Notes under the pieces: generated by a model
The model's input: only the letters and a program-made list of their open reading frames with translations
Database searches by the model: none
What the model was told of the DNA's origin: nothing
Assembly: GCA_004193545.1 (NCBI GenBank)
Contig: RPGO01000033.1
Span: forward strand, 3,841 to 67,840
Origin: Candidatus Argoarchaeum ethanivorans
Lineage (GTDB): Archaea; Halobacteriota; Methanosarcinia; Methanosarcinales; EX4572-44
DNA length: 64,000 nt
Reading direction: 5' to 3'
Translations under genes and position numbers: made by a program
Shown: one piece after another, positions 3,855 through 63,564 of the stretch
Position numbering within the stretch: the stretch's first letter is position 1
Layout of the letters: every line of letters begins with the position of its first letter

Positions 3855-3960
3855 ATCAGAAGAGTAACAAACGGTAGCAGAGATATACTTGCTCAAATTT
3901 AAGCTGTTTTATATTCCAGGATTTTAGCCACAAGGTTGGTACAGCTTGATTGCTGCAGCA

Positions 3961-4123
3961 CTCGATTGCTTCTCGCAATCGAGAATTGGCCGTTAACCGT
4001 TATCTCTGCAAAAATCAAAGGTTATCGGTTATTTCCACTCACGTTGTGTGCAGTTCTGTGTTAATTTTTGCACAACGAAGTTGTACAGTTACTGGTTATT
4101 TCTGCAAAGCGCAAGCTTTGCAG
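3961..4123. repeat. cluster of three hairpin repeats (9-bp stems)
   Basis: The three hairpins are CTCGATTGC-ttctc-GCAATCGAG (3961-3983), TGCACAAC-gaa-GTTGTACA (4069-4088) and CTGCAAAGC-gca-GCTTTGCAG (4102-4123). The GGTTATTT flank is present. Confidence 0.85.
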
Positions 4124-5481
4124 TGCTTAAGAGTTTCGTCTTCTTTTCCCATCGCCTGCATTACTTCTGCAAGCATTTCCACCTGCACAACAGCAGTTCC
4201 TATATAGTCGTATGGATTCATAATCTGTGCAATCTCCTCTCTACTCAACGATTGACGAATAGTGGAATTTGCAAGAAGTGCATCCTGCATGTGAAGCTTT
4301 TCTTCTCGTGCGAGCATTGCACATTCACGCACAAGTTTGTGTGCTTCCTGCCGTCCAACACCCCTTTTTGCAAGTTCAATCATCACAGCTTCCCCCATAT
4401 TCAAACCATTAAGCAGTTCAAGGTTTTGCTTGATGTTGTCCGGGTAAAAACGAAGATTTTTAATGACCTTTGTTGCAGTTCTGAGGATGTGATCTGTGAG
4501 TATGCACACCTCCGGAAAGATCACCCGTTCAGAGGCTGAGTTGGTAAGATCCCGTTCATCCCATAGTGTATTATTTAGCAACTCTGGTTCAACCATGCCC
4601 CTAATCACTCGTGCAAGCCCGCAGATTTGTTCAGACTTGATTGGATTTCGCTTATGCGGCATCGTGGATGAGCCAACCTGTTTCTTGCCAAAACTTTCCT
4701 GGACTTCTCCAATCTCACTTCTCTGTAAGCTCCGGATCTCGGTGCTGATTTTATCAAGGGTGGTTGCAAGATTTGCCATCCAGAACACAAACTCACTGTG
4801 CCGATCTCTCTGGATGATCTGGTTTGACACGTCAACACTGTTAATTCCAAGATGTTTCATTGCCAATTCCTGCACTTTAAGTCCATGTTTGCCAAAGGCT
4901 GCCTGTGTGCCGGATGCACCACTCATCTTTCCAACCACCACTCTTGGTATCAGCTCTTTAAGACGAGTGATGTGCCTGTCGACTTCTGATGCCCAGATGG
5001 CAAATCTTAAGCCATAGGTTGTAGGTATTCCAATCTGCCCATGAGTGCGGGCAACACAGACAGTATTTTTATGTTCAAGAGCAAGTGCAGTTAGTACACT
5101 TCTAAGCCTTCGAGCCTGCACAAAGAAAATATCAATGGCATCCTTGAACTGTAGGGCGGTTGCAGTATCCAGCATGTCATTGGAAGTAGCACCAAAGTGC
5201 ACCCACTTTCCGTAATCGCCACACTGTTCAGATAATGCCAGTACTATAGCCATCATGTCGTGATTAATCTCGTCTTCAATCTCTTTAACCCGTTCAAGCT
5301 CTACCTTTGAGGCAGCATCTTCAATAGCTATAGCTGCATTTTTTGGAATCATTCCAATTTCCACCTCAGCATTAGCAAGAGCAACCTCGACACTAAGAAC
5401 TTTTTTTAGACGAGATTGTTCGTCCCATACACCCTTCATCTCATAACTGCCGTATCGAAACTCGATCGGATGAATTGCCAT
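4096..5481 (-). CDS. purB: adenylosuccinate lyase
   Basis: The start is taken at MAIHPIEFRYGSYEMKGVWDE. It shows fumarate-lyase family signatures (GSSTMPHKRNP) and is about 461 aa. Confidence 0.9.
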   Translation of the reverse strand: MAIHPIEFRYGSYEMKGVWDEQSRLKKVLSVEVALANAEVEIGMIPKNAAIAIEDAASKVELERVKEIEDEINHDMMAIVLALSEQCGDYGKWVHFGATSNDMLDTATALQFKDAIDIFFVQARRLRSVLTALALEHKNTVCVARTHGQIGIPTTYGLRFAIWASEVDRHITRLKELIPRVVVGKMSGASGTQAAFGKHGLKVQELAMKHLGINSVDVSNQIIQRDRHSEFVFWMANLATTLDKISTEIRSLQRSEIGEVQESFGKKQVGSSTMPHKRNPIKSEQICGLARVIRGMVEPELLNNTLWDERDLTNSASERVIFPEVCILTDHILRTATKVIKNLRFYPDNIKQNLELLNGLNMGEAVMIELAKRGVGRQEAHKLVRECAMLAREEKLHMQDALLANSTIRQSLSREEIAQIMNPYDYIGTAVVQVEMLAEVMQAMGKEDETLKHCKACALQK

Positions 5482-5576
5482 GTAAATATCACACACGTGG
5501 TAAAATTTAAAGATTGGGCTGGTTAACAAAACCCAATCTTCATTCTTATATTTATTTTTCCTTTTTATAGTTATTT

Positions 5577-5596
5577 CTGCAAGCGTGAGCTTGCAG
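5577..5596. repeat. hairpin repeat
   Basis: CTGCAAGC-gtga-GCTTGCAG preceded by AGTTATTT. Confidence 0.75.
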
Positions 5597-5607
5597 GTTA
5601 CTTGTAT

Positions 5608-6153
5608 TTATTCGTCTTTTCCTATCATAATTTCTGTTGATTTGACTATAGCAGTCACATCATCGCCGTTCTGGATGTTCAGTGCTTCTGCTGCTTCTTC
5701 AGTAATTATTGCAGTTACTGTTGCAGGTTTAATGTCTATTTTGATCTTTGCTATAATCTCATTTTTCTCAATACTGGTTACTGTTCCTTTTATCTGGTTT
5801 CTTGCGGTTATCTTCAAACTTATCACCTCCCAAAACGTTTTATCATAGAGTGTCTGGCTAAGCAGGTTTTGATAGGAGTCATATTCTTTGAGGAGCTGTT
5901 TTGTTTTTGCAGTGAGTTTACTCCCCTGCATTTTTCCTCCACATTTTGTGGTAAGTACTTTCTCTCCGATAGCATGTTCTATTTCTTTTATCTGAAGCCA
6001 TGCATGCTTGTAGGATATATTCAGTTTTCCACAGGCTTTATTAAGAGAGCCTTCCACGTCTATGGTTTTAAGCAGTTTTACTTTGCCCTCACCAACGATT
6101 GGTATCTCTTTGTTTGTTAGCCAGAGTTTTGTTTTTGCCTGTGTTCTTACCAT
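5608..6153 (-). CDS. modE: ModE-like molybdate-responsive regulator (HTH + TOBE/Mop domain)
   Basis: The start is taken at MVRTQAKTKLW. The ModE-type HTH reads ISYKHAWLQIKEIEHAIGEKVLTTKCGG..GSKLT. The C-terminal TOBE-like part reads ITARNQIKGTVTSIE... Confidence 0.7.
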   Translation of the reverse strand: MVRTQAKTKLWLTNKEIPIVGEGKVKLLKTIDVEGSLNKACGKLNISYKHAWLQIKEIEHAIGEKVLTTKCGGKMQGSKLTAKTKQLLKEYDSYQNLLSQTLYDKTFWEVISLKITARNQIKGTVTSIEKNEIIAKIKIDIKPATVTAIITEEAAEALNIQNGDDVTAIVKSTEIMIGKDE

Positions 6154-6251
6154 TATTAAGTTTGCATGTTGTTTATTATTTATAACCTTAACTCCGCACC
6201 AGATTCGCAACAGTTTAATACCATTACATTCCATATATGACATGCATCTCA

Positions 6252-6902
6252 ATGATGGATATTGAAACACTAAAACACATTGCAGCACTCGGTGCTATGC
6301 AAAAAGCAGTGAAAATCGTCTCTTCACAACTGGCAGAGCTGATGCTCACAAGTCCACAGACTGCTGCAAGACGTCTTCAAATTCTTGAAAAGGAGGGCAT
6401 GATAGAGCGGCAGACAACTACTAACGGACAATGGATAAAACTTACTCCAGGTGGTATTAAACGACTTGAAGAAGAATATCGATTCTACAAGCAGTTATTC
6501 AATGTCAAAAGCACGATAGAACTGGTAGGAACAGTTCTGACAGGACTTGGTGAAGGACAGTACTACCTATCAAGCGAAGGATATAAAAAACAAATAGAGC
6601 AAAAACTTGGGTTTACACCATATCCCGGCACGTTAAATATAAAACTCGATTCTGAAAGTGTAAGACTACGCGGGAATTTAGATGCCAAAGCAGGAATCAA
6701 GATCAATGGGTTCACCAGTGAAAAAAGAACCTTTGGAGGAGGGATATGTTTTCCAGTTACTATCAAGGATGTCAAATGTGCCATAATACAGCCGGAGAGA
6801 ACTCATTACTCACCGGAAATACTTGAAATCATAGCACCGGTAAACCTTCGAAAGCACCTGAATCTCCACGACAGTTCGATTGTGAAAATAAATATCAACT
6901 GA
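6252..6902 (+). CDS. ribK: CTP-dependent riboflavin kinase with an N-terminal winged-helix domain
   Basis: It carries the archaeal RibK motifs GTVLTGLGEGQYY, PYPGTLN and TFGGG..P. The start is ATG 6252 or 6237. Confidence 0.8.
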   Translation: MMDIETLKHIAALGAMQKAVKIVSSQLAELMLTSPQTAARRLQILEKEGMIERQTTTNGQWIKLTPGGIKRLEEEYRFYKQLFNVKSTIELVGTVLTGLGEGQYYLSSEGYKKQIEQKLGFTPYPGTLNIKLDSESVRLRGNLDAKAGIKINGFTSEKRTFGGGICFPVTIKDVKCAIIQPERTHYSPEILEIIAPVNLRKHLNLHDSSIVKININ

Positions 6903-6921
6903 AAAGTAAGAGGTAAAAAAT

Positions 6922-7617
6922 ATGAAAGAACTAAGTAAAGCAATAGATTCCCTGAAAAATGGCAAAATGATACTATTATATGATGCAGATAACAGGGAGG
7001 GGGAAACAGACTTTGTTATCCCTGCACAAAGCATGACACCACGCGATGTCGCACAGATGCGAAAAGATGGTGGGGGACTTATATGTGTTGCAATCTCCGC
7101 ACCAGTTGCAAAGAAACTTGGACTTCCTTTTATGTCAGACCTGCTCAAACATGCAGGAAATAATGGAAATAAAGAATTAAAAACGATCGTTGAAAAAGAT
7201 GGAGATATAAAATATGACCACAGGTCATCCTTTTCAATATGGGTCAACCACCGAGATACCTGCACAGGCATACCTGACAATGACAGAGCACTGACTATAA
7301 ACAGGATTGCAGAGGTAACAAAACTGGTTGAAGATGGGGGTTATATCGATTTTGGCTCAGAGTTCCGCTGCCCGGGTCATGTGGCAATACTGAGAGCAGC
7401 AGACAAACTCCTTGAAGAGCGAGCAGGTCAAACAGAACTTTCGATAGCTCTTGCACAATTAGCAGGGATAACATCTGCAATGGTGGTCTGCGAAATGCTT
7501 GATGAAGAAGATGGCAGAGCACTCTCAAAACAAAAAGCAAGACAGTATGCAAAGAAGCACAATTTTCCATTCATAGAGGGAAAAGACGTTAACCACTCTC
7601 AGGAGTTGTGCAACTGA
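6922..7617 (+). CDS. ribB: 3,4-dihydroxy-2-butanone 4-phosphate synthase
   Basis: It reads LYDADNREGETDFVIPA...GGLICVA...RCPGHV, which is typical of archaeal RibB. Confidence 0.85.
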   Translation: MKELSKAIDSLKNGKMILLYDADNREGETDFVIPAQSMTPRDVAQMRKDGGGLICVAISAPVAKKLGLPFMSDLLKHAGNNGNKELKTIVEKDGDIKYDHRSSFSIWVNHRDTCTGIPDNDRALTINRIAEVTKLVEDGGYIDFGSEFRCPGHVAILRAADKLLEERAGQTELSIALAQLAGITSAMVVCEMLDEEDGRALSKQKARQYAKKHNFPFIEGKDVNHSQELCN

Positions 7618-7742
7618 CATTTCGCACTTGCTGCGCAATCAAGAGTTACTGGCGATCTCTACTCATGTTGTGTCGTACCGGTCACAGATAGAAAGCTGTT
7701 GAGAAATATATTGGGACGTAAGAATTACAGAGAGAGTGACTG

Positions 7743-7805
7743 AAATGTTTATAAAAAGAAAATCACTAACAAGCCTTGTACCTATAAGTACGGGGTCGGT
7801 GACTT
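7743..7805 (+). repeat. 63-bp conserved element (copy a) ending GGGGTCGGTGACTT
   Basis: It is about 85% identical to the reverse complement of 33303-33365. It contains a TATA-like TTTATAAA and an imperfect hairpin CCTTGTAC-ctataa-GTACGGGG. Confidence 0.8.
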
Positions 7806-7893
7806 ACGACACATTAAAGAACTTCTTGAACGTAATAAGTAAAGCTGTAAGATATATACTCATGTGGATAAATACGGATTCTAAGGTAGAAGA

Positions 7894-8742
7894 ATGGATA
7901 AATCTAAGATAGGTTCTGCAACTGCTAAAGGTGGATTTGCAAACGAGAGAGTAGTTTGCGAAAAGTTTAACAATTGGAAGAAGGATAAAGAAGCTCAAAT
8001 TTGGCTTAAAATTATGGGATACAATATAAAAAAGATTGATTTTGTAAATGCAATCCATATTCCAACCAGAATTAAGAGAAGTGATCTAGAGAAATTCGGA
8101 ATAAGTGAAGAAGATTATGAAGATCTGATGCGATTTAAGAAAGCAGATGCTCAAATCAAGATAATAATTGCAATCGGAAATATATTGAAAATAGAGAATC
8201 TATCTTTAAAAAAGGCCAATTCTGATGCCAATTATAATCAGGTAGACAAGAGACGGGTCGATTCGTATCAAGAGATGTGGGGTTTTGATGAGGATATAGC
8301 CCTTGGACTAAAGCTTTTTACAGGAGAGTTAAATCCTGAATTGTATCCCGAACTTATAGGAAAAAGAGAACTGCGAGATAAGAGAAGGTTGTTTTTGGAC
8401 GAATTGCCAGAATATATTAGAGCCAAAATTTTGAGTTTTTTTAAAGATAACAGGATAATTGTTGTAAATGATATTCTAAAAGGTAGAGGTGGGCTTTCAG
8501 CAGATTGGATGCTTGTTACCAGATACAATAAACAAGACCAGACTACTACATGGATATTTAAGGACATTAACACTGCTATGAATCTCTTTGGCGGTGGTGA
8601 TGTAAGAATTTCTCCCAAACGGAGTTTATATATCGGTAAAATCACAATGCAAAGGAAAGGTGGAACTCCTGATCCAACAAAGTTACAATTCAAGATTAAA
8701 CCGTGTGAACTATTTAAATTGGAGTGTAGGGATGGAAGTTGA
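7894..8742 (+). CDS. type II restriction endonuclease (HinP1I/MspI-like by recollection)
   Basis: It overlaps the downstream DNA methyltransferase by 11 nt. The N-terminal GSATAKGGFANE..FNNWKKDKEAQIWL and C-terminal ITMQRKGG..LQFKI segments resemble that REase family from memory; this is unverified. Confidence 0.6.
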   Translation: MDKSKIGSATAKGGFANERVVCEKFNNWKKDKEAQIWLKIMGYNIKKIDFVNAIHIPTRIKRSDLEKFGISEEDYEDLMRFKKADAQIKIIIAIGNILKIENLSLKKANSDANYNQVDKRRVDSYQEMWGFDEDIALGLKLFTGELNPELYPELIGKRELRDKRRLFLDELPEYIRAKILSFFKDNRIIVVNDILKGRGGLSADWMLVTRYNKQDQTTTWIFKDINTAMNLFGGGDVRISPKRSLYIGKITMQRKGGTPDPTKLQFKIKPCELFKLECRDGS

Positions 8743-9526
8743 CAAAGTATATTTAGGCGACTGCATTGAAATTATGAAAAAACTTCCTGGAAAGTCCATA
8801 GATTTGATCTTCGCAGATCCACCATTTAATATCGGGGTAAAGTATGATAAATACAATGACAATCTATCTTATGAAGAATATTATGATTGGTCAAAAGAAT
8901 GGATATTAGAGACATGCAGATTATTAAAAAAACATGGGTCGATATATATTGCGATTGGAGATGAATTTGCAGCTGAAATAAACATAATTTTGAAACAGAC
9001 CGGATATTACTTTAGAAACTGGATAATATGGTATTACACCTTTGGTCAAAATCAGCGAAAAAAATTTAATCGATCGCATACACATATCTTGTATTTTACT
9101 AAAGACAAAGAGAAGTCTGTATTTAACTCCGATGATATTCGAGTTCCTTCAGCAAGACAACTTGTTTATAAAGATAAAAGGGCAAATCCCAAGGGAAAAA
9201 TTCCAGATGATGTGTGGCAATTCTCAAGGGTATGTGGGACATTTAAAGAACGGTTAGGAACTCATCCGTGTCAGATGCCTGAATCTTTGCTAGAACGGAT
9301 AATCCAGGTAAGTTCTAATGAATGGGATAAAGTTCTGGATCCTTTTGGTGGGACAGGAACAACATCAGCAGTTGCTAAACGATTAAAAAGACATTTTATA
9401 ACGATGGAAATATCAGAAGAATACTATAATCTTATATTAAAAAGGTTGGATGGTAAAGTTGCAGAGATAAAAAGAGATGTGAAGGTTGAATCGGAAAAGC
9501 AGATGACATTACTTGATATGGCGTGA
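8732..9526 (+). CDS. beta-class N6-adenine/N4-cytosine DNA methyltransferase
   Basis: Motif IV DPPFN sits near the N-terminus and motif I LDPFGGTGTT near the C-terminus. The start ATG 8732 gives MEVDKVYLGDC. Confidence 0.85.
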   Translation: MEVDKVYLGDCIEIMKKLPGKSIDLIFADPPFNIGVKYDKYNDNLSYEEYYDWSKEWILETCRLLKKHGSIYIAIGDEFAAEINIILKQTGYYFRNWIIWYYTFGQNQRKKFNRSHTHILYFTKDKEKSVFNSDDIRVPSARQLVYKDKRANPKGKIPDDVWQFSRVCGTFKERLGTHPCQMPESLLERIIQVSSNEWDKVLDPFGGTGTTSAVAKRLKRHFITMEISEEYYNLILKRLDGKVAEIKRDVKVESEKQMTLLDMA

Positions 9527-9687
9527 TAAGAAGAATGCCCAACTAACGGTCCACTGGATGCCCTGTATTTTAATTGAGAGTGGCACGGCTTGGGCTTATG
9601 CACAAAGAAGTTATGCAGGGCTGCAACATAAAAACCGTCTAATTTATGTAATATGTTTTCCATTGAAGCGTGACTTAAGGAGTTATT

Positions 9688-11007
9688 ATGGTGCTTGATA
9701 AACTTGGCGGGTCTTTGCAGAATGTACTAAAAAGGATTGCCGGTGCCGGTCGAATCGATGAGCGTACAGTCAGTGAACTGGTCAAGGATATTCAGCGGGC
9801 ACTCTTGCAGGCTGATGTGAATGTGAAGCTTGTGATGAAGCTTTCAAAGCGAATAAAAGAGCGTTCATTGAAGGAGAAGCCGCCTGCTGGAATAAACCCG
9901 CGTGAGCACGTGGTTCACATCGTGTACCAGGAATTAATTGATATTATAGGTCGAAGCAGCGATATTAAGCTTGGTAAGCAGACCATTATGATGGTTGGTT
10001 TGCAGGGTGGAGGTAAGACAACTACTACAGTCAAGCTTGCGCGCTATTTTCAACGTAAAGGACTCAAGCCAGCAGTTATATGTGTGGATACATTTCGTCC
10101 CGGTGCTTATGAGCAACTTAAAACGCTCTGTGAACGCATCCATGTTGCTTTTTATGGTGAAGCTGGTAATTCAAATGCAGTAGAGATCTTAAAGCACGGA
10201 CTCCCACAGATAGAAAAATATGATGTCAAGATTATAGATACTGCCGGGAGGCACGCACTTGAATCAGAGTTAATTCAAGAAATGGAGGATATTTACGAAA
10301 TAGTAAAGCCTGATCACAAGTTTCTTGTGCTTGATGCTGCAATGGGTCAGCAGGCAAGTGAACAGGCAAAGGCATTCAATAACTCTATTGGCATCACAGG
10401 CATTATCATATCAAAACTTGATGGTACTGCCAAAGGTGGTGGAGCGCTTTCAGCGGTCTCGGAGACTGACTCGTCAATTGCGTTTATTGGTGCCGGGGAG
10501 ACGCCAGAAGATCTTGAGAAGTTCGAGCCAGACCGATTCATATCACGCCTGCTTGGTATGGGAGATATCAAGACTCTGATTGAAAAAGCAGAAGAATCCA
10601 TCGATGAAGAAGAGTTTAATATTGAAGACATGATGCAGGGCAAGTTTACACTAAAGGACATGTACAAACAGCTTAAAGCTATTAACAAGCTTGGACCACT
10701 TAAAAACGTGATGCAGATGCTGCCTATGGGGAAACTCGGACTTAAAGTCTCAGACGATATGTACAAGGTAACAACAGACCGTCTTGACAAATACAAAGTG
10801 GTCATGGATTCTATGAACGACAGAGAGCTTGAAGATCCACGAATCATCAACAGCTCACGAATGTTTCGCATTGCACACGGTTCTGGAAACGATATTGATG
10901 TGGTGCGTGAGCTAATAAAATACCACCGCACCATGCAGAAAGCTATGAAAGGTTTGCGTGGTGGTAATTTTAATGTCCAAAAAATGATGAAAAAACTTGG
11001 AATGTAA
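9688..11007 (+). CDS. srp54: signal recognition particle protein SRP54
   Basis: It has N, G and M domains: [15 protein letters not shown], and a Met-rich C-terminus. Confidence 0.95.
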
Positions 11008-11015
11008 AAAAGAAT

Positions 11016-11552
11016 ATGTCGTCAGCAGAACATAAAAAACACACACCAATGCATCTAAAATTTGCAATAATAACAGTCAGCACTTCAAGGTATGAAAAAA
11101 ACACGAGAGCTTTAAATCCCGGTGACACCGAAGACGGCTCAGGCAAACTTATGATAAAGATGGCTAAAGAGGCAGGGCATGCGGTTTGGTCTTATCTTCT
11201 TGTGCCTGACCAGGTAAACAAAATCATAGATGCAGTTGAAAAGGTTCAAAAGCAGGTTGATGCAATAATTATCAGTGGTGGGACTGGCATATCGCCAACA
11301 GATGTTACAATAGAAGCAGTATCCCCGCTTTTTATTCGTGAAATACCAGGATTTGGCGAGTTTTTTAGAGAATTGAGCAGAGAGGATATAGGCACTGCTG
11401 CAATGTTAAGCCGTGCAGCAGCAGGCATAATCAACAAGGATGTTATCGTATTCTGCCTGCCAGGCTCACCTGATGGAGTGCGTATTGCCTTAACAAGGCT
11501 CATTCTTCCAGAAATCGGGCATCTGGTCAAACATGCTCGAATGCTTGCGTAG
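11016..11552 (+). CDS. moaB: molybdenum cofactor biosynthesis protein B (MoaB/MogA family)
   Basis: It reads ITVSTSR...DAIIISGGTGISPTDVT...PGFGE...LPGSP. Confidence 0.85.
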   Translation: MSSAEHKKHTPMHLKFAIITVSTSRYEKNTRALNPGDTEDGSGKLMIKMAKEAGHAVWSYLLVPDQVNKIIDAVEKVQKQVDAIIISGGTGISPTDVTIEAVSPLFIREIPGFGEFFRELSREDIGTAAMLSRAAAGIINKDVIVFCLPGSPDGVRIALTRLILPEIGHLVKHARMLA

Positions 11553-11828
11553 AAAGGTATTCGAGTGCATTATCCATGCTTTATTGCCAAGAGTGGTTAA
11601 AATTCCTGAATCTTTCAACAACTCGTTTTTTCTTTTTCTGTACTGTTCTACCTTTTCCTTAACAGCGCCCACCAGGGAAAGTTCGTCTTTATCAAGAGTA
11701 ACTTCAATACCTTTACTGATCGTTCCCACGATTTCAGGCACACACATTTCAAGACACTTGCTTACTTTAGCCAGAGTTTCAGCTTCACTGAACTTCTGAC
11801 ATGTGTTTCGTTGATGTTTATTGTACAA
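11490..11828 (-). CDS. hypothetical protein (weak call)
   Basis: A 112-codon ORF converges on moaB and overlaps its end by 63 nt. No recognisable motif. Confidence 0.25.
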   Translation of the reverse strand: MYNKHQRNTCQKFSEAETLAKVSKCLEMCVPEIVGTISKGIEVTLDKDELSLVGAVKEKVEQYRKRKNELLKDSGILTTLGNKAWIMHSNTFLRKHSSMFDQMPDFWKNEPC

Positions 11829-12075
11829 TTTGTAAGGTCTATATTTGAGGCACCAGTACCAGTCTGGGAGGGGGTTAATTTTCGGTAGTGTCCCAATTTA
11901 CGATAGTTTATTATAGTATGCAAGAGAACCATTCTTCTGGTGAACACCATGGTGCGACAGTCTCGCTGCACCGAAAGCCTAATATAGTTACTCAACAGAG
12001 GTATTTGAACGTTATAAAAACAATCACATCCTGTGAACTAAAACAAAACTCTAAAAAATTTCCTAACAATTATTT

Positions 12076-12373
12076 AACGTATAGGAAAGTATAAATGCAA
12101 CAACATTTTCCTGCTATTGAAATCCGATACATAACTCTGCACAACGAAGTTGTGCAGTTTTTAAAAAAGATAGGAAGCTAAGAGAAATGCAGACGGTGTA
12201 TAAATACAGACTGTGTCCAGCATCCAAACAAGAGCAGTCTCTGTTATTTGTTATGAATGTCTATCGGTGGATTTACAAACAGCATTACCGGAACTGAAAA
12301 ATAATCATCCCAATCTGAAAAAAGTCAACTCAAAAATCCTTCAGATGGCATTATTCATGCTTTCCTATACGTT
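12076..12373 (+). mobile_element. MITE-like about 300-bp element with 14-bp perfect terminal inverted repeats, carrying a TnpB-like remnant
   Basis: AACGTATAGGAAAG at 12076 pairs with CTTTCCTATACGTT at 12360-12373. The internal ORF (12213-) reads TALPELKNNHPNLKKVNSKILQMA, like the N-terminal segment of IS605/IS1341 TnpB. It also contains hairpin 12137-12157. Confidence 0.5.
12137..12157. repeat. hairpin repeat
   Basis: CTGCACAAC-gaa-GTTGTGCAG is a perfect 9-bp stem followed by T5. Confidence 0.85.
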
Positions 12374-12451
12374 AAAAAAGAATGGTAAAACCTCCTTTCC
12401 ATTGGGGGCAGTTCATAACAAATGTGTGATCATAAATAAAAGGAATTACTG

Positions 12452-13654
12452 ATGAAAGCGATTATTCTTGCTGCAGGAGAAGGAATCAGATGCAGGCCAC
12501 TAACATTTACAAGATCAAAGGTGATGCTGCCAATCGCAAACAAACCAGTGATTGAGTATGCGGTTCGTGCACTTTATGACAATGGAATTGTCGATATTAT
12601 CATCGTTGTAGGGTATGCAAAAGAGCGCATCATGAACTATTTTGGTAATGGGAAAGATTTTGATCTGAATATTGAATATGTAGAGCAAAAACAACAACTT
12701 GGTACAGCCCATGCAATAGATCAGGTAAAAGATTTAGTCGATGATGAATTTCTTGTGTTAAACGGGGATAATCTTGTCAGTGCAAAGACAATCACAGACC
12801 TCATTAAAAGACATGAAGGCGGCATATCGATCCTGACAGTAGCAAGTGCCAATACCACCGAATATGCAATCGTTGAAGAAACGAATACAAAGGTGAAAAG
12901 AGTCGTCGAGGGGCAGAAACTAAAAAAGGTTAGCAATATCAATACTGGAATTTATATACTAAACCCAGATATTTTTGGTGCAATCAGGGAGACGCTTCAG
13001 TCAAATCTTGGTGAGTTCGGGATCACAGACTCGATACAGAACATGGTTGATGAAGGCTACAATGTGCATGCATACAAAACAAATCACACATGGATGGATG
13101 TTGCACATTCATGGGACTTGCTTGATGTAAATGCACGAATTCTTGAGGATGTTTCAAGGTCGGTACATGGAACAATACACGGCACAACCAAAGGCCAGGT
13201 AAAGGTCGGCAGTAATTCAATCATTAGAGAAGGTTCCTATATTACAGGTCCTGTCGTCATAGGAAAAAACTGTGACATCGGTGCAAACGTGGTCATTGCT
13301 CCATCCACATCCATTGGAGATAATGTCACAATCGAGCCGTTTACATATATTAGAAACAGCGTAATCTTTGATAATGTCTACATCGGTTCACAGAGCACCA
13401 TAAAGAATTCTATCATCGCAGAAAACAATATCATTGGCAGTCATTTCACTACAGATACCGGGAAGAACCTGTTGATAGAACTTGGTGGAAACCTGTATCG
13501 TGCAGACGAGTTTGGTACCATACTTGGAGATAGTAACATTATAGGAGGCAATGTTTCTATGATGGCAGGAACGCTGGTTGGAACAGAGTGCAGGATTGAA
13601 ACAGGTACTGTCATCAGGAAGCAGATACCAAACCACTCACTGGTGATGCAGTAG
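12452..13654 (+). CDS. glmU: bifunctional sugar-1-phosphate nucleotidylyltransferase/acetyltransferase (archaeal GlmU type)
   Basis: The N-terminus is LAAGEG.R..PLT..R.K. The C-terminus has hexapeptide (left-handed beta-helix) repeats. The gene is adjacent to glmS. Confidence 0.8.
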   Translation: MKAIILAAGEGIRCRPLTFTRSKVMLPIANKPVIEYAVRALYDNGIVDIIIVVGYAKERIMNYFGNGKDFDLNIEYVEQKQQLGTAHAIDQVKDLVDDEFLVLNGDNLVSAKTITDLIKRHEGGISILTVASANTTEYAIVEETNTKVKRVVEGQKLKKVSNINTGIYILNPDIFGAIRETLQSNLGEFGITDSIQNMVDEGYNVHAYKTNHTWMDVAHSWDLLDVNARILEDVSRSVHGTIHGTTKGQVKVGSNSIIREGSYITGPVVIGKNCDIGANVVIAPSTSIGDNVTIEPFTYIRNSVIFDNVYIGSQSTIKNSIIAENNIIGSHFTTDTGKNLLIELGGNLYRADEFGTILGDSNIIGGNVSMMAGTLVGTECRIETGTVIRKQIPNHSLVMQ

Positions 13655-15454
13655 ATGTGTGGCATTGTAGGCTATCTTGGCGGCTCCAGTGCTGCTGCAC
13701 AACCAGTTCTTTTTGATCTTCTAAAGAGACTTGAGTATCGTGGATATGATTCTGCAGGTATTGCTGTTATGAACGGGAGCATCCAGGTACTCAAGACAAA
13801 GGGAAGTGTTAATAATCTGATGTCGGAAACTCCCATTCTTAGAGGATGCTGCGGCATCGGTCATACCAGATGGGCAACACATGGAAAGCCGTCATCTAAA
13901 AATGCGCATCCACACTGTTGCGATACCAACAAGATCGCTGTTGTCCATAATGGAATCATTGAAAACTATATAGAAATCAGGGACAAGCTGATTGATTTAG
14001 GACACAAGTTCAGATCTGAAACAGACACAGAGGTGCTTCCACACTTAATCGAGGAAAATTATAATAATGACCTTGAATCATCGGTGAGACAGGCACTATC
14101 AATGGTTCGTGGATCGTATGCACTTGCTGCGATAAGCTCGAACGATCCCGATAAAATCGTAGTAGCAAGAAAAGATAGTCCTCTTGTTCTTGGACTTGGT
14201 GAGACTGGTTTTTTTATTGCATCTGATGTTTCTGGCATCCTGAAATATACAAAAGATGTAATTTTTTTGAATGACCGTGAGCTTGCAGTAATCAGTCATA
14301 ATGGAATAGAAATTACAACACTGGATGGAAAAAAGGTTGACAAAAAAATCGAAACGATTAAATGGAACGCCGAATCCGCAGAAAAAAGCGGGTATCCACA
14401 CTTCATGCTAAAAGAGATCTTTGAACAACCAGACGTTATCCGTGAAACATTTTCAGGAAGAATGTCCGCTGAAGGAGTTGATCTTGAGGTAGTGATGCCA
14501 GATGCACGACGAATTATTATCACAGCATGCGGAACCTCATACCATGCAGGACTGTTCGGAAGATATGTGATCGAGCGATTTGCTCGTATCCCTGTGAATG
14601 TTGAGATTGCATCTGAATTCAGATACATCAATCCGATTGTTAATTCCAGTGATCTGGTGATAGGGATAACCCAGTCAGGAGAGACCGCAGACACCCTTGC
14701 AGCAGTGAGAGAAGTTAACCTTGAAAAAAGCCAGAAATTTGGTATCGTCAATGTACCAGGAAGCAGCATCACAAGGGAGTCTCAATGTTTATTCACAAGA
14801 GCAGGACCTGAAATTGGGGTTGCTGCTACCAAATCATTTACCTCTCAGCTTGCTGTACTGCTTCTATTAGCAGTGCAACTTGGAAGGGCAAGAAAAGAGA
14901 TGTCAACAGCAGATGCAAATGACTTTGTTTATGACTTAAAGCAGATGAGCGGTAATATCCAGCGGGTATTAAACGAAGCAGATAATATCAAAAAATGCGC
15001 TCTGGTCTTTGCCGATGCCGACCAGTTTTTATTTATGGGAAGGGGCGCAAACTATCCGATTGCTCTTGAAGGTGCACTGAAATTAAAAGAGATCTCATAC
15101 ATTAAAGCAGAGGGCTTTCCTGCAGGCGAATTGAAGCATGGGCCGCTTGCATTAATCTACGATGGAGTTCCAGTAGTAGCGATCGCAACAGAAGGTGTGA
15201 CATACGAGAAGATGCTTGGTAACATCAAGGAAATAAAAGCAAGAGGCGCTACTGTTATTGGTATTGCAAATGAAAGCGATACCAAGATAGAAAAGTATGT
15301 GGATCGTGTGCTTCGTATACCTGATTCTAACCCCTGGATTTCACCTGTACTTTCCTCGGTTGTACTTCAGTTATTTGCATACTATGTTGCAGACTACAAA
15401 GGATGCGAAATTGATAAGCCGAGAAATCTTGCAAAGAGTGTTACTGTTGAATAA
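13655..15454 (+). CDS. glmS: glutamine--fructose-6-phosphate aminotransferase
   Basis: It has the MCGIVGY N-terminal nucleophile, two SIS domains and the C-terminal KSVTVE. Confidence 0.95.
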   Translation: MCGIVGYLGGSSAAAQPVLFDLLKRLEYRGYDSAGIAVMNGSIQVLKTKGSVNNLMSETPILRGCCGIGHTRWATHGKPSSKNAHPHCCDTNKIAVVHNGIIENYIEIRDKLIDLGHKFRSETDTEVLPHLIEENYNNDLESSVRQALSMVRGSYALAAISSNDPDKIVVARKDSPLVLGLGETGFFIASDVSGILKYTKDVIFLNDRELAVISHNGIEITTLDGKKVDKKIETIKWNAESAEKSGYPHFMLKEIFEQPDVIRETFSGRMSAEGVDLEVVMPDARRIIITACGTSYHAGLFGRYVIERFARIPVNVEIASEFRYINPIVNSSDLVIGITQSGETADTLAAVREVNLEKSQKFGIVNVPGSSITRESQCLFTRAGPEIGVAATKSFTSQLAVLLLLAVQLGRARKEMSTADANDFVYDLKQMSGNIQRVLNEADNIKKCALVFADADQFLFMGRGANYPIALEGALKLKEISYIKAEGFPAGELKHGPLALIYDGVPVVAIATEGVTYEKMLGNIKEIKARGATVIGIANESDTKIEKYVDRVLRIPDSNPWISPVLSSVVLQLFAYYVADYKGCEIDKPRNLAKSVTVE

Positions 15455-15459
15455 CTGCA

Positions 15460-15548
15460 CTGCACAACTTCGTTGTGCAGAAAATAACTCTCGATTGCGC
15501 TAGCAATCGAGTGCATAGAAAATAACTCTCGACTACGAAGTAGTCGAG
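15460..15548. repeat. array of three hairpin repeats separated by the constant linker GAAAATAACT
   Basis: The hairpins are CTGCACAAC-ttc-GTTGTGCAG (15460-15480), CTCGATTGC-gcta-GCAATCGAG (15490-15511) and CTCGACTAC-gaa-GTAGTCGAG (15528-15548). Confidence 0.9.
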
Positions 15549-15551
15549 TTC

Positions 15552-16118
15552 CTATACGTTCAAAAAATTAAAAACAATCTTGAGACCTGCTGGTGTGAGC
15601 ACAGATTCCGGATGAAATTGCACCCCCTCTATGGGATACTTGTTGTGGCGAATTCCCATGATCAAGCCACTTTCAGTCTTTGCAGTAACTACAAACTCTG
15701 CTGGAAGAAGTGTAATGGCAAGTGAGTGATAGCGTGCGGCCTCAAACGGATTCTCAATTCCTTTATAGATGCGTCTACCATCATGGTATATGTTGGCAGT
15801 TTTGCCATGAATCGGACCATCTGGTGAATGGCTAACTTTGCCGCCAAAAGCTACTGCAATTGCCTGGTGACCAAGACAAACTCCAAGCTGCGGAGTATCA
15901 GTGAAATGCCTGATTATTTCGATACAATTTCCAATATCTCGATTGTTGGAAGGATTGCCAGGTCCCGGTGAGATAACAATTGCATCAGGCGATATTTCCC
16001 TTACTTTTTCTATAGTGATTGTATTAGGAGCTACTATCGTATCTGGCTCGAATTTTGATACGTAATCCACTAGGTTCCATACAAAAGAATCTTTATTGTT
16101 GATAAACAGCACCTTCAT
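15552..16118 (-). CDS. trpG: anthranilate synthase component II (glutamine amidotransferase; TrpG/PabA family)
   Basis: It is a class I GATase (GVCLGHQ, HPES). It overlaps the component I gene by 4 nt. Confidence 0.85.
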   Translation of the reverse strand: MKVLFINNKDSFVWNLVDYVSKFEPDTIVAPNTITIEKVREISPDAIVISPGPGNPSNNRDIGNCIEIIRHFTDTPQLGVCLGHQAIAVAFGGKVSHSPDGPIHGKTANIYHDGRRIYKGIENPFEAARYHSLAITLLPAEFVVTAKTESGLIMGIRHNKYPIEGVQFHPESVLTPAGLKIVFNFLNV

Positions 16119-17680: not shown

Positions 17681-17727
17681 GCCTCTTGACTATAAGTTTG
17701 TAGTTTAATATTTAAACATTGTTGCAT

Positions 17728-17776
17728 TTGATTGTTACGCAATCAAAAGTTAATTTCTGCACAACGAAGCTGTGTA
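17728..17776. repeat. two degenerate hairpin repeats
   Basis: The pair is TTGATTG-ttacg-CAATCAA (17728-17746) and CTGCACAAC-gaa-GCTGTGTAA (17757-17776, decayed right arm). Confidence 0.6.
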
Positions 17777-17870
17777 ATTAGGTTTTTCGTGCTTCATGTA
17801 TGAGACAACGACTCGTGGAGGTTTAATTAATATACAGTGAGACTTTATACATTGTAATTTGTAAAGAATA

Positions 17871-19653
<1,783 letters not shown>

Positions 19654-19667
19654 TTTCCTTTATCTTC

Positions 19668-19676
19668 TTTTTTTTT
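19668..19676 (+). terminator. oligo-T tract after glnK
   Basis: A T9 run lies about 15 nt after the stop. Confidence 0.4.
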
Positions 19677-19856
19677 GCACGTGTTTCGAGCTGATTCAAA
19701 AAAACCACGAGAGTTTACAAGATTAACACAGAGGGGAAAAATGGAAAATACGAATAAAAAGTGGCTCCATATGGGAGACTGCCATGTCATCTGGTGTTGA
19801 CACTGTTTTGAAGTTTTTGAAAATCATTATAGATACATATCTTGATTGCTGACGCA

Positions 19857-19921
19857 CTCGACTACTTCGTAGTCGAGAGTTGAAAGCTACCGGTTATTTT
19901 CTGCACAACGAAGTTGTACAG
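19857..19921. repeat. two hairpin repeats
   Basis: The pair is CTCGACTAC-ttc-GTAGTCGAG (19857-19877) and CTGCACAAC-gaa-GTTGTACAG (19901-19921), preceded by CGGTTATTTT. Confidence 0.85.
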
Positions 19922-20016
19922 TTCAGGAAAATCATCATTTGTGAGTTTCCCAATGTGGCAGCCCGGTGTTTCGATGAATTCATATAGTGTTATTCATGTT
20001 GTAGCTATTAGTATAT

Positions 20017-22329: not shown

Positions 22330-22412
22330 TAGATAATAGCTACAATACTACTTTCCAGTTCTGTGTCTGAAATATATTTTTAAGACACTGATTAACAAGA
22401 GATTTAAATAAA

Positions 22413-22431
22413 CTGCACACCCCGTGTGCAG
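22413..22431. repeat. hairpin repeat
   Basis: CTGCACAC-ccc-GTGTGCAG followed by AAATAAC. Confidence 0.75.
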
Positions 22432-22522
22432 AAATAACAAATTCTGATTGTAACTCTTGATTGTGCAAGTGCACACTTCGTATGTAGAATTCTGTATCGA
22501 ATTTCAGTAGCAAGAGAACTGG

Positions 22523-22548
22523 GTGCGTTTATACTTTCCTATGCGTTT
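22523..22548 (-). repeat. 26-nt motif family copy (AAACGCATAGGAAAGTATAAACGCAC on the minus strand)
   Basis: It matches 3199-3224 and 12076-12101 with 2-3 mismatches. Confidence 0.6.
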
Positions 22549-22616
22549 AAAATAAGCCGGACGCTCCCATGATTTATTGTTTCAAAACCATCCTTCTTCC
22601 GTATTTCTTCAGTGAG

Positions 22617-22943
22617 TATAGTCAAACACCCAACATTTAGGACTTTTGAATGTGTGGCGCAAATTTATTATAGTTACGAACCTAATATTTCTAACTTATG
22701 TTCCTCATCAATAAATTTTTCAATCCACCCTTTCGCAAAGCTAATCTGTGATGAATATTTCCGAAACTTATCAATGATTATCTCTTTCATGTGATTTAAA
22801 TCTACAGAATATTTCCGAAACTTATCAATGATTATCTCTTTCATGTGATTTAAATCTACAATAAACTCGCGTGAAATGACTTTCTTGATGCTTTTCCAGA
22901 TGAATTCAATTGGATTCCATGCGTGATCGGTTAAGCTCTCCAC
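22617..22943 (-). pseudogene. 3' fragment of an IS630-family transposase gene plus its terminal repeat region
   Basis: It has a C-terminal ..WNPIEFIWKSIKK.. motif. An in-frame 54-bp tandem duplication spans 22753-22860. The 54-bp end sequence 22617-22670 recurs at 48516-48569. Confidence 0.6.
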
Positions 22944-25655: not shown

Positions 25656-25990
25656 GCGACGGTTTTGGGCATGTGTTGTTGTGTGTTCCGGATCCGCACC
25701 AGTGTTACTGGATTTTTCGGTCAGATCCCCAGTGCCCCAAATTGATACTGGTCCCAAATTATTTAATATTGAAATTAATAATTGATGGTGCAAAGAGTTT
25801 TTCAACGGGCGCTGGAAACTTTTTCAAGACTATTATGTTTTATAAAAATTTCCATTTCTATTCTTCGGGATCAAATAAAGATAAGAATACAATGCATTCC
25901 ATAGGAGTTAATTCAGATTCGATGTTTGATTTTATCCAATTGCATTAAGAGCGCCAACATGTAATGTAATGTAATACTCAAAAATTCCCC

Positions 25991-30925: not shown

Positions 30926-30937
30926 AGGCCCGCAGTT

Positions 30938-31873: not shown

Positions 31874-31997
31874 GTCAAATCACATCTTATTCTATTATAA
31901 ATTTATTTGTTTTGCTACACTTGATTGCTGCGCAGCTACAACCTTGCCACACCCGGGATAAATTGCGGGACATCCCTGACAGTTGGACGAGACCTTA

Positions 31998-32291: not shown

Positions 32292-32327
32292 ATTTTTTTA
32301 CCTCTGTACATAAGTCACTATACCCAT

Positions 32328-33287: not shown

Positions 33288-33302
33288 TATATTCCTCCTG
33301 AA

Positions 33303-34145: not shown

Positions 34146-34205
34146 TATATTATCCCTGTGTCGTTATTGTCTCTGCAAAGACTGCGTAATCGAGATTTAT
34201 TGTCT

Positions 34206-34226
34206 CTGTAAAGCGCAGCTTTACAG
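34206..34226. repeat. hairpin repeat
   Basis: CTGTAAAGC-gca-GCTTTACAG preceded by ATTTATTGTCT. Confidence 0.8.
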
Positions 34227-34243
34227 GTGTATAGATGATCATA

Positions 34244-36292: not shown

Positions 36293-36294
36293 TC

Positions 36295-36504: not shown

Positions 36505-36510
36505 TGTATT

Positions 36511-37594: not shown

Positions 37595-38092
37595 GTTTGT
37601 TACCTCTATTGTGTTAAAGATCAACAGTAACTTACACAACGATGGTACATATATCTTTTTATCGTTTTTACATTTCATTATGAGGCTGTCAAATTACCCC
37701 GTGAATTTCGTGTTTCTAATTTGATGGTTATCTGTTCTGTTAGGGTTTCTTTGCTTTTGTCTCCTGTTTAGTTTGATTAAGAGCCAACAGGACCAATTTC
37801 ACCTCCGTAATGCTTACACAATAATAATGATTGAGTATCGTGCCAATATCCCATTTATCTGGTGGAAATCTTTCAATTTTGGTAGGGAATTCTTTGACTG
37901 TAGTTAATCTTCGTATCAACTTCGTTGTGCAAAAAAAACAACAAACCCGGTAACCCTTTAATTTAATTATTATAATTTCAGCTCCGCTGCAGTTGGGACA
38001 AAAGGAGTATAGTCAGATGGAACTTTTAGATTTTGAATAAGACCGGATAATGTTTTATTTCCGGCACGGAACATGCCCCGCGGCACTTTGAC

Positions 38093-42942: not shown

Positions 42943-43223
42943 ATGCATGGCACTGTTTGGGATGATAGATAGGCTCATCCTGGCGGTGCTGTTGCAGTGG
43001 GGGATGTGAGTATTTTTATAGAGAGTCTGTTAGAAGATTCTCGTAAGACTTATGTGGGATGTGTTCTCGATTAGTGTGCATGGAGTGCAGAGAACTGTGC
43101 AAGGCATTAAGGTAGTGCCTTGGTCTGTGGGAACCATCCTGCTTACATGGATCGGTTGGACATGGATGGAAGGTTGTGGAGCGATACATACAGAATCAGG
43201 AGAAGCCAAATGCGAAATCGCTA

Positions 43224-49302: not shown

Positions 49303-49404
49303 TCATTGCATAGTGGCGCAGACGTGACTTTTCAAAATATAGTGAGGTAAAAAATCACTGGTTTTTTAGATAGTGTCTTACGCAGTAATCAAGATCCTCA
49401 AAAA

Positions 49405-49519
49405 CTGCACAACTTCATTGTGCAAAACCGCACACACTCATATGCGAAAACAATTCTTGATTGTGCTATCAATCAAGTGTAGAAGTAACCGGTAATTCTC
49501 GATTGCGCAAGCAATCGAG
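49405..49519. repeat. cluster of three hairpin repeats
   Basis: The hairpins are CTGCACAAC-ttc-ATTGTGCA (49405-49424), CTTGATTG-tgctat-CAATCAAG (49456-49477) and CTCGATTGC-gcaa-GCAATCGAG (49498-49519). Confidence 0.85.
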
Positions 49520-49549
49520 TGCGACAGCAATCAAGTGGAGCAACAGGTT

Positions 49550-62641: not shown

Positions 62642-63541
62642 GTTGCTGAGACACTAGTAGATGGAGAACCGATCTATTACTGGATCGACCAACAGAACAA
62701 GGAAGTTCCCATTGATGCAGGCTTTGTTGGACTTGTGAACTCCACAAATATAACGGTTAAAGACCTCACACTGACGAATAACCTACAGGGAGTGTTACTC
62801 GCATACACAAAGAATTCGAGGATAGAACGCATCAATGCATCGAACAACGGCAACGGCATCCGCCTATATTCTTCGAGTGATAACGCGCTCACGAACAACA
62901 ACGACGGCATCTACCTGCATTCTTCGAGTAACAATACACTCACAAACAACACTGCATCGAACAACCACTACGGCATCTGGCTGTATTCTTCGAGCAACAA
63001 CACCGCACCGAACAACCACTACGGCATCTGGCTGTATTCTTCGAGCAACAACACGCTCACAGAGAACACCGCCAACTCGAACAACCACTACGGCATCTGG
63101 CTGTATTCTTCGAGCAACAACAACCTACTCTACCACAACAATCTCATCAACAACACCAAGAACGCTTATGACACAAGCCCCAACCAGTGGAACACCTCAA
63201 CCGTTGGCAACTATTACTCAGACTACACAGGAAGCGACAACGACAGCGACGGTATAGGCGACACTTCGCATCAGATTCCAGGCGGAAGCAGCATTGATTA
63301 TTTCCCTCTGATGCATCCATGGGGAAAACCACCACTGAAAGGCGACCTTGACGGCGATTTCCAAATCACTTCAACAGATGCTGCAATCGCACTTCAAATT
63401 GCAGTCGGCAACCGCCCCTGCAATCCTGAAACCCTCGCTATTGCTGATGTTAGTGGCGACGGCAGGGTTTCATCACTTGATGCTCTTATGATTCTACAGA
63501 ACTGTACAACTTCGTTGTGCAGAGATACCGATAACCTTTGA
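62642..63541 (+). pseudogene. 5'-truncated parallel beta-helix (NosD/PbH1-like) repeat protein with a C-terminal dockerin-like domain
   Basis: The frame is open from 62642 without an ATG. It has repeats NNHYGIWLYSSSNNT and a C-terminal GDLDGDFQITSTDAAIALQ...DVSGDGRVSSLDALMILQ. It abuts the IS630 fragments. Confidence 0.65.
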
Positions 63542-63564
63542 TTCTCGATTGCGGAGCAATCGAG
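63502..63564. repeat. two hairpin repeats
   Basis: The pair is CTGTACAAC-ttc-GTTGTGCAG (63502-63522) and CTCGATTGC-gga-GCAATCGAG (63544-63564). Confidence 0.85.

Follow-up and report, generated by a model that had tools for sequence, protein, structure and literature searches.

Short hairpin repeats of ordered array structure in Candidatus Argoarchaeum ethanivorans and its close relatives: an extragenic, lineage-restricted family that may be mobile

What are the short palindromes that recur between the genes of Candidatus Argoarchaeum ethanivorans, and how have they come to lie there? The question is raised by a stretch of 64,000 nucleotides of this archaeon (contig RPGO01000033.1 of assembly GCA_004193545.1, positions 3,841 to 67,840 of the forward strand), referred to below as the window, which carries nifH-nifI1-nifI2-nifD-nifK, amt-glnK, glmU-glmS and trpEG. 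An original prediction, made from the letters of the window, described in it a dispersed family of intergenic hairpins, and suggested selection on the fold as in terminators, protein-binding hairpins or elements of the REP/RAYT type, i.e. repetitive extragenic palindromes (REPs) and the REP-associated tyrosine transposases (RAYTs) that move them. In this paper, we describe the unit, the array structure, the distribution and the turnover of these hairpins, which to our knowledge, and after a search of the literature, form a family hitherto undescribed in Archaea; no description of such repeats was found for GoM-Arc1 or Methanosarcinales genomes. We lean, without great confidence, towards the view that they are lineage-specific, non-autonomous selfish repeats.

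Every coordinate given in the prediction, including those of decayed copies, was found to hold a hairpin of the kind described, and the claimed total of at least 20 agrees with our own count of about 20 in 64 kb, decayed copies included. Eleven hairpins have a perfect 9-bp stem and a 3-5-nt loop (starting at 3961, 4102, 12137, 15460, 15490, 15528, 19857, 34206, 38093, 49498 and 63544), and all 11 begin with CT and end with AG; one-mismatch copies lie at 5577, 19901, 22413, 49456 and 63502, and decayed ones at 4068, 7620-7690, 17727-17779, 31915-31945, 37915-37940 and 49405. The comparison with shuffled sequence that had been proposed as a check was made with 100 dinucleotide-preserving shuffles of the window, in which perfect CT..AG hairpins had a mean of 0.06, against the 11 observed, and such hairpins of any kind a mean of 1.08. 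Under a looser definition (closure by C-G, a loop of the form G..A or T..C and up to two mismatches), the window has 19 matches, 15 of them family members, compared with 4.1 in the shuffles. No Rfam family matched the 64-kb window at the gathering score, and an E-value search of Rfam with an array of nine hairpins returned only sub-threshold noise from miRNA hairpins.

The unit of the family is a palindrome of 21-22 nt with the 9-bp stem CTNNANNNC/GNNNTNNAG, in which the closing pair is always C-G and the loop reads G-N1-3-A on one strand in about 142 of 151 family hairpins (T-N1-3-C on the other strand). The GAA/TTC loops reported as frequent do occur, but the rule is broader than that, and GCA, GGA, GTA, GCAA, GTTA, GCTA and GATA are found as well. 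Sequences of the forms d(C-GNA-G) and d(C-GNNA-G) are reportedly classic, extraordinarily stable DNA minihairpins, and we take the loop and C-G closure of the family to be of the d(C-GNA-G) type; standard folding gives -9 to -10 kcal/mol per unit, with z about -5. The presence of several stem classes was borne out, as nine arm classes can be distinguished. The hairpins fall into two super-types with CT--A---C in common. Type I is CTYGAYTRC (CTCGATTGC, CTTGATTGC, CTTGATTAC and CTCGACTAC), and type II is CTGCAnnnC (CTGCACAAC, CTGCAAAGC, CTGCATAC and CTGCACAC; with a GAA loop, for instance, CTGCACAAC-GAA-GTTGTGCAG). When read in the orientation of the G..A loop, type I is flanked by AAAATAACT or ..GGTAACCTTYAATT on the 5' side and by TGC on the 3' side, and type II by AGTTATTTT on the 5' side and by TGC or T on the 3' side. 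The flank GGTTATTT, which had been called constant, is indeed a conserved motif, but not every hairpin carries it: as (A)GTTATTT(T), it links a type I hairpin to the type II hairpin that comes next, and its reverse complement, AAAATAACT, stands before type I. The composite unit accordingly reads GCA-(type I, reverse complement)-AGTTATTTT-(type II)-TGC.

The arrays built from these units have a fixed order on their T-rich strand, namely I..I and then II..II. Among neighbouring perfect hairpins, type I is followed by type II in 22 cases (head-to-head, with a linker of the AGTTATTTT type) and type II by type I in a single one, and tandem neighbours of the same type (I,I in 13 cases and II,II in six) are typically spaced by 14 nt. 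The 91 arrays are composed as I, II, I II, I I II, I II II and so on, with two violations of orientation in about 200 hairpins; their linkers are 8-23 nt long and are themselves conserved, and on the T-rich strand they start with a type I arm or a leader and end with ..GTGCAG. Orphan half-sites occur frequently (5' arms 52 times and 3' arms 65 times, e.g. the leader CTTGATTGC-TGNNGCA) and recur at a regular spacing of about 14-16 nt; together with arm hybrids between classes, which also exist, they show recombination between units. The predicted co-variation of the two arms is real, since they match in 140 of 193 arm pairs when nine classes are considered, versus 37 expected for independent arms, and all mismatched combinations are single-step neighbours. 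The selection on the fold that had been read from it is less secure, as co-variation also fits with subfamilies that each spread from intact masters, an explanation open because orthologous copies decay (see below). Two further interpretations of the arrays were rejected: a three-way-junction RNA with an outer stem made of orphan arms fits only about 12 arrays, and 5'-truncated retro-copies are ruled out by the many solo type I hairpins (29 arrays) and by 5' ends that are defined, not ragged.

To see how far the family extends, 185,579 species genomes were scanned for CTCGATTGC-N3-5-GCAATCGAG, which yielded at least 101 loci. Among the 101 matches listed, 40 are from three metagenome-assembled genomes (MAGs) of GoM-Arc1, i.e. 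Ca. Argoarchaeum ethanivorans CAJHIS01 (including loci L094 and L095), Ca. Ethanoperedens thermophilum WNEG01 and GoM-Arc1-GOS RXIJ01. They share 87-93% identity in orthologous DNA, have about 40-41% GC, and thus form one genus-level clade. The window is 94-97% identical to CAJHIS01 over 9596-17007, 30816-31902 and 33623-37724, and 92-95% identical to a second Argoarchaeum MAG, CAJHIO01 (locus L109), over 4154-22333. The comparison loci, mostly picked for containing the CTCGATTGC hairpin, bring the sequence of the clade to about 0.45 Mb, and gene calls in them are based on open reading frames (ORFs) and approximate. In 308 kb of the GoM-Arc1 MAG loci, perfect CT..AG hairpins number 122 and belong to the classes found in the window. 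No family hairpin was found in about 55 kb of the next related lineages (GlmS 75-79% identical, 48-51% GC), and in viral contigs type II was not matched at all and type I only in 23 scattered places, which do not constitute a family. An exact look-up of the GlmS protein of the window found no record of it, and a metagenome scan with this protein returned one relative, which at 48% identity is too distant for synteny.

Matches in the Planctomycetaceae MAG JAYVSE01 were rejected as family members: they have the same core, but as part of an unrelated palindrome 70 nt or more in length. This palindrome, CCGACGTACGCACG-CTCGATTGCC-TTCG-GGCAATCGAG-CGTGCGTACGTCGG, stands on at least nine contigs of that one MAG (L008, L010, L015, L031, L036, L043, L071, L085 and L097).

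A second recurrent sequence is associated with some of the arrays, a nearly invariant box of 25-30 nt made of a T-run and AACGTATAGGAAAGTATAAACGCA, of which the loci of the clade hold 31 copies; those in the window are at 3202(+), 12079(+), 12370(-) and 22544(-), with a weaker one at 35542(+). The box resembles a promoter with TFB recognition element (BRE) and TATA sequences and also precedes ordinary genes; it may be either a 'mobile promoter' that has dispersed or a promoter consensus of unusual rigidity. In 13 of the 31 cases it is followed in constant orientation by a leader (TCTCTTGCTACTGAAATTCGATACATAAT..), a hairpin array and a T-run, an order which suggests that some arrays may be transcribed from their own promoter. 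The sites of the family in the window are as follows.

3945..4140, plus strand: array with leader half-site CTTGATTGC-TGCAGCA (3945-3960), type I hairpin (3961-3983), decayed units, and type II hairpins at 4068-4088 (two mismatches) and 4102-4123; shares sequence with the 3' end of the adenylosuccinate lyase ORF on the minus strand
5576..5597, plus strand: solo type II-like hairpin CTGCAAGC-GTGA-GCTTGCAG after TAGTTATTT, between two minus-strand genes
7620..7690, plus strand: decayed array, ..GCAATCAAG AGTTACTGG..CTACTCATGTTGTGTCG
12079..12162, plus strand: promoter-like box AACGTATAGGAAAGTATAAATGCA, conserved leader, type II hairpin (12137-12157), then TTTTT
15460..15548, minus strand: three-hairpin array in the spacer where glmS and trpG converge, with II (15460-15480), I (15490-15511) and I (15528-15548)
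17727..17779, plus strand: decayed pair (I and II) between the divergent trpE and amt
19819..19935, plus strand: array with leader (19841-19856), type I (19857-19877), linker and type II (19901-19921)
19819-19827 and 19927-19935: 9-nt direct repeat GAAAATCAT bounding the preceding array
22413..22560, minus strand: box (at about 22544, minus), leader, decayed units and hairpin CTGCACAC-ccc-GTGTGCAG (22413-22431)
31915..31945, plus strand: CTTGATTGC-TGCGCA, a fragment of a leader bordering a 1.7-kb insertion
34170..34226, plus strand: partial unit and type II hairpin CTGTAAAGC-gca-GCTTTACAG (34206-34226)
37915..37940, minus strand: half of a type II hairpin, CAACTTCGTTGTGCAA
38093..38113, minus strand: solo type I hairpin CTCGATTGC-gaa-GCAATCGAG, then TGC, upstream of nifH
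49399..49540, minus strand: array with decayed II (49405-49425), type I-like (49456-49477) and type I (49498-49519) hairpins and trailing half-site GCAATCAAG
63502..63564, minus strand: doublet of II (63502-63522, with a T.G wobble) and I (63544-63564)

The intergenic location of the hairpins holds for the clade as a whole: when copies with at most one mismatch and ORFs of at least 150 aa are counted, only 19 of 212 copies (9%) lie inside ORFs, which cover 67% of the bases. Four of the in-gene copies are in the window, where three are chance look-alikes and the fourth concerns adenylosuccinate lyase. The ORF of this enzyme (4096-5529, minus strand) matches its CAJHIO01 orthologue as far as ..EVMQA and then runs on for 18 further codons, with the last 8 codons and the TAA stop supplied by the hairpin at 4102-4123 and its linker. 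Similarly, a NosD/dockerin ORF (62735-63541) takes its last codons and stop from the array at 63502 (63502-63541), so that arrays rewrite the 3' ends of genes, two ORFs of the window having received their final codons and stop in this way. As for orientation, the T-rich strand of the array is opposite to the flanking genes in 25 tandem pairs and the same in 11, while 14 arrays lie between convergent and eight between divergent genes. The mostly opposed orientation argues against the terminator role that had been suggested, and the bias seems to be as expected if T-runs in the sense strand of operons are selected against.

The comparison of copy positions among close relatives, which the prediction had called for, revealed that arrays are gained, lost and multiplied between strains. 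The glmS/trpG spacer contains three hairpins in the window, two in CAJHIS01 (L095) and nine in CAJHIO01; the trpG-proximal type I hairpin is common to the three genomes, the class of the first hairpin differs in each of them, and the window has an extra 37-nt unit (a linker and a CTCGACTAC hairpin). At the 12137 locus, an 88-nt unit of promoter-like box, leader and hairpin occurs once in the window and four times in tandem in CAJHIO01. The syntenic CAJHIO01 locus lacks the arrays at 3945-4140 and 7620-7690, retains only end remnants of the 19841-19921 array and has an orthologue of the 5577 hairpin with one mismatch; the site at 34170..34226 has 33 nt that are extra relative to L094. The pair at 17727-17779 is decayed both in the window and in CAJHIO01, with different changes breaking the stems, which indicates that individual copies are not maintained. 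Furthermore, two assemblies with the same GlmS (L109 and L110) differ by tandem 66-nt units after hef, and Argoarchaeum and WNEG01 differ by an array that takes the place of 180 nt of spacer. The N-gaps of MAG assemblies adjoin arrays; the arrays thus break such assemblies, and on the other hand offer markers for strain typing of uncultured ethane oxidisers. In the trpE/amt spacer, CAJHIO01 also has a 1.65-kb NosD/beta-helix gene (L109 14446-15837) that is missing at 17900 of the window.

Some of the arrays carry what looks like a footprint of insertion. Exact direct repeats of at least 12 nt in the non-family flank bound 18 of 98 arrays, compared with 1.3% of control positions, and repeats of at least 9 nt bound 23 of 98, compared with 4.3%. 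Those in unique flanks are 9-30 nt long; besides the 9-nt GAAAATCAT of the window at 19819/19927, they include the following.

L079: TGTATAGGAA, 10 nt, directly abutting an array of 177 nt
L017: TACAGAAGCCAG, 12 nt
L024: 12 nt, around an array of 351 nt
L047: ATATGGGATTTAG, 13 nt
L053: TTTCATAAATTTCAT, 15 nt
L003: GGCAGAGGCAATCAAATGGTG, 21 nt, exact
L094: CAGGGATAATATAATGATGCAATATGTTA, 29 nt, at the counterpart of the 34170..34226 site of the window

Transposition by Y1 transposases of the HUH class, as in IS200/IS605, produces no target duplication, and DDE transposases produce one of fixed length. Duplications that vary from 9 to 30 nt are therefore unlike the products of either, and would fit copy-choice or template switching, or the repair of staggered breaks.

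Taken as selfish mobile repeats of a REP/BIME- or BOX-like kind (BIMEs being bacterial interspersed mosaic elements), the hairpins would have spread in blocks and then been reshaped by slippage, and it is this account that we judge somewhat better founded than not. Whole arrays or blocks of units would be copied into new intergenic sites, often duplicating 9-30 nt of the target, and would subsequently gain, lose and exchange units by slippage or template switching between near-identical arms, while old copies would decay. Selection would remove copies from coding DNA and disfavour T-runs in the sense strand of tandem gene pairs. The active form would presumably be the hairpin of single-stranded DNA, and insertion would be made by copy-choice or break repair instead of a dedicated transposase.

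Several points weigh against this account. About half of the flanking repeats lie inside larger tandem duplications, and so are not independent footprints of insertion. The very high constancy of the sequences across species could reflect a host function, and the 13 boxes that feed arrays in one orientation hint at an RNA-level role of some arrays. No mobilising enzyme was found in the approximately 0.45 Mb searched, mostly of CTCGATTGC-selected loci, and the choice of most loci for this hairpin makes the sample a biased one. Finally, repeats can be mis-assembled in MAGs, and the difference between L109 and L110 may partly be an artefact.

A stronger version of the mobile-repeat account, which we consider rather unlikely, holds that the mechanism is new for prokaryotic short repeats, i.e. 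a hairpin-driven copy-and-insert process independent of both RAYT and DDE enzymes that leaves variable duplications of 9-30 nt. Template switching at stalled forks or a novel nuclease/polymerase are candidate processes for it, and the promoter-leader-array-T-run units might serve as masters, expressed as small RNAs. If true, Archaea would have their first defined REP-like mobile repeat system, one with its own machinery.

A true REP/RAYT system, or mobilisation in trans by IS200/IS605, would instead require a Y1 HUH transposase that recognises, cuts and pastes single-stranded hairpins. A resemblance in style to the REP/RAYT-type elements named in the original prediction, and to BIMEs, is genuine: the loops are strand-asymmetric and appear to be of a DNA-stable type, the feet of the hairpins and their flanks are conserved, types I and II face each other like the REPs in BIMEs, and the clustered, opposed repeats with conserved linkers that characterise BIMEs are present. 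Y1 transposases also exist in the clade. A tblastn search with the IS608 TnpA (PDB 2A6M) and a Sulfolobus TnpA gave two relevant matches, an intact IS608-like tnpA-tnpB in L079 (WNEG01) and a decayed remnant in the window, which shares 34% identity with the C-terminal part of IS608 TnpA (E = 0.023). The two transposon remnants of the window that serve here as context are listed below.

12187..12450, plus strand: decayed TnpB (IS605 OrfB) remnant beside the 12137 hairpin
43029..43211, plus strand: decayed IS200-type Y1 tnpA remnant just after nifK, with no family hairpin nearby

The TnpB-like remnant noted beside the 12.1-kb copy is thus real (MQTVYKYRLCP.. at 12187, with PF12323 relatives, an internal deletion and a truncation by the start of a glmU-like gene), but its link to the hairpin is unsupported. 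Its closest relatives (P0001; L102-L107) are also remnants, on other Methanosarcinales-like contigs of a hairpin-free lineage. Where the window has the hairpin these homologues read ACATAACT|TTTTAA, and L102 lacks a CT..AG hairpin, although the right end (RE) hairpin of a related TnpB remnant has an inner TTGC-GATA-GCAA motif in common with type I. From this alignment the 12137 hairpin would be a clean 21-nt insertion beside TnpB, for which our confidence is only moderate because the hairpin ends the repeated promoter-leader unit. The link to IS200/IS605 fails as well at the left end (LE) and RE hairpins of the resident IS608-like elements in L079 and L140 (CCCAYGA..TCGTGGG and CCCAGGTGC..GCCCTGGG), which are unrelated to the family. 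Nor was a RAYT-like gene flanked by copies found in the approximately 0.45 Mb of clade sequence, where the ORFs with copies on both sides amount to six candidates, none recurrent and none transposase-like. The flanks in the orientation of the G..A loop (5': ..AAYT or ..TTATTTT; 3': TGC or T) contain no GTAG/CGTC, the tag of the REPs described in bacterial phyla (Di Nocera et al. 2013, PMC3733652), and in Archaea only the IS200-type subclass of Y1 proteins has been reported, without the REP-associated subclasses (Quentin et al. 2018, PMC6006769). In view of the missing tag, the lack of a RAYT in the sequence searched and the target duplications, which HUH Y1 enzymes do not make, the family should not be filed as a member of the REP/RAYT systems, and we regard this explanation as unlikely.

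A virus-like contig of about 126 kb (L140-L143; terminase, many small ORFs, 35-36% GC) was found to carry a near-identical tnpA-tnpB. Its TnpA is 95% identical to the copy in the WNEG01 MAG, and this similarity suggests an exchange of the insertion sequence between virus and host.

Alternatively, the hairpins could act at the RNA level, as terminators, as protection of mRNA 3' ends or as small RNAs expressed from dedicated promoters. Most copies sit after the 3' ends of genes, T-runs follow some of the hairpins, several loops (GCAA, GTGA and GGAA) are GNRA-like, and the 13 units with promoter-like box, leader, array and T-run would suit the last of these roles. In one-mismatch copies the mismatch is of the transition type (G.T or A.C) in 62 of 66 cases; however, the strand bias expected of wobble pairs in an RNA is weak, with G.T on the G..A-loop strand in 38 of these 62 and on the other strand in 24, counts that are not independent because many copies lie in tandem arrays. 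The GNA triloops that predominate are more typical of stable DNA hairpins, Rfam gave no match, and the opposed T-run strands (25 vs 11) and the eight arrays in divergent spacers are difficult to reconcile with such roles. The same is true of the decay of orthologous copies and of the gain, loss and multiplication of arrays between genomes that are 92-95% identical, and an RNA-level function of the family seems to us improbable, much to the degree of the REP/RAYT explanation.

Still more doubtful is the idea that the repeats are sites, maintained by selection, at which a host protein binds double-stranded or cruciform DNA (with a part in chromatin, topology, replication or segregation). In its favour, the arms are nearly unchanged in three species whose surrounding spacers have diverged, half-sites are regularly spaced, and E. 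coli REPs are reported to be bound by gyrase, integration host factor (IHF) and Pol I; against it, single sites are dispensable and unstable between strains, decayed copies persist, the flanking target duplications indicate insertion events, and no candidate protein was found.

Two other classes of element were rejected. A miniature inverted-repeat transposable element of the DDE type does not fit ends that have only CTNNA in common and duplications that vary between 9 and 30 nt, and a clustered regularly interspaced short palindromic repeat (CRISPR) array does not fit linkers of 8-23 nt that are themselves conserved or repeats of several classes.

The window contains further repeats and insertions. 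A fragment of a DUF772 (IS5/IS1182-type) transposase (48706-49239) lies just upstream of the 49399..49540 array, and a 63-nt repeat, with copies at 48507-48569, at 22608-22670 and in L050, probably marks one end of an insertion sequence of the DDE class. The segment of about 1.7 kb at 31902-33623 is inserted relative to L094; it contains a zinc-ribbon ORF (32328-33287, minus strand) and has the leader fragment at its left edge. The non-coding stretch at 11835-12079 is about 99% identical to L095, the flanking genes being about 94% identical, and it has no Rfam match. Repeats unrelated to the hairpins are a 134-nt tandem pair at 25982-26256, also present in L018 and L048, and a 130-nt repeat at 60019-60148, also present in L037.

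How, then, does the family compare with the known systems of short repeats? Like the REP, BIME and REPIN (REP doublet) systems with their RAYTs, it consists of short extragenic palindromes of several classes that are of high copy number, lineage-specific and variable between strains, and like REPs in BIMEs these form mosaic arrays with conserved linkers and opposed orientations. It differs in its archaeal host, in having neither the GTAG/CGTC tag nor a RAYT that could be found, and in its variable flanking duplications. REPs are imperfect palindromes of 30-40 nt, unlike the perfect 9-bp stems with G..A loops described here; a doublet lacks complementarity between its two partners, and hence does not make a REPIN; and in contrast to BIMEs the arrays have a fixed polarity of I..I and then II..II. 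The ends of IS200/IS605 elements and of palindrome-associated transposable elements (PATEs) have subterminal hairpins that are recognised as single-stranded DNA, and one copy of the family does lie beside a TnpB remnant, but the hairpins of the resident insertion sequences are unlike the family, a TnpB homologue is without the hairpin, and IS200/IS605 make no target duplication.

Two systems for which we know of no transposase of their own also offer a parallel in some respects. The BOX elements of pneumococci (boxA-boxB(n)-boxC) are intergenic, structured and polar, with modules of 45-60 nt of which the middle one is repeated a variable number of times, and we know of no dedicated transposase for them. 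The family resembles them in its modular, polar, intergenic arrays, whose middle or terminal module varies in repeat number, and differs from them in host (bacterial for BOX), in its unrelated sequences and in the size of the modules. The small dispersed repeats (SDRs) of Nostoc punctiforme, hairpin-forming and 21-27 nt long, have reportedly the appearance of having been inserted into otherwise similar sequence; we know of no mobilising enzyme identified for them, nor of an ordered two-type grammar or flanking duplications. They are similar to the family as very small hairpin repeats (about 21-24 nt) without an identified mobilising enzyme, and differ in their cyanobacterial hosts and in sequence. 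Systematic surveys place REP-like repeats and their Y1 transposases in bacterial phyla only, and a dense, ordered and rapidly changing hairpin family in an archaeon extends this genome-shaping phenomenon beyond the bacteria, with an array grammar and variable target duplications that provide a concrete handle on how repeats can spread without a RAYT.

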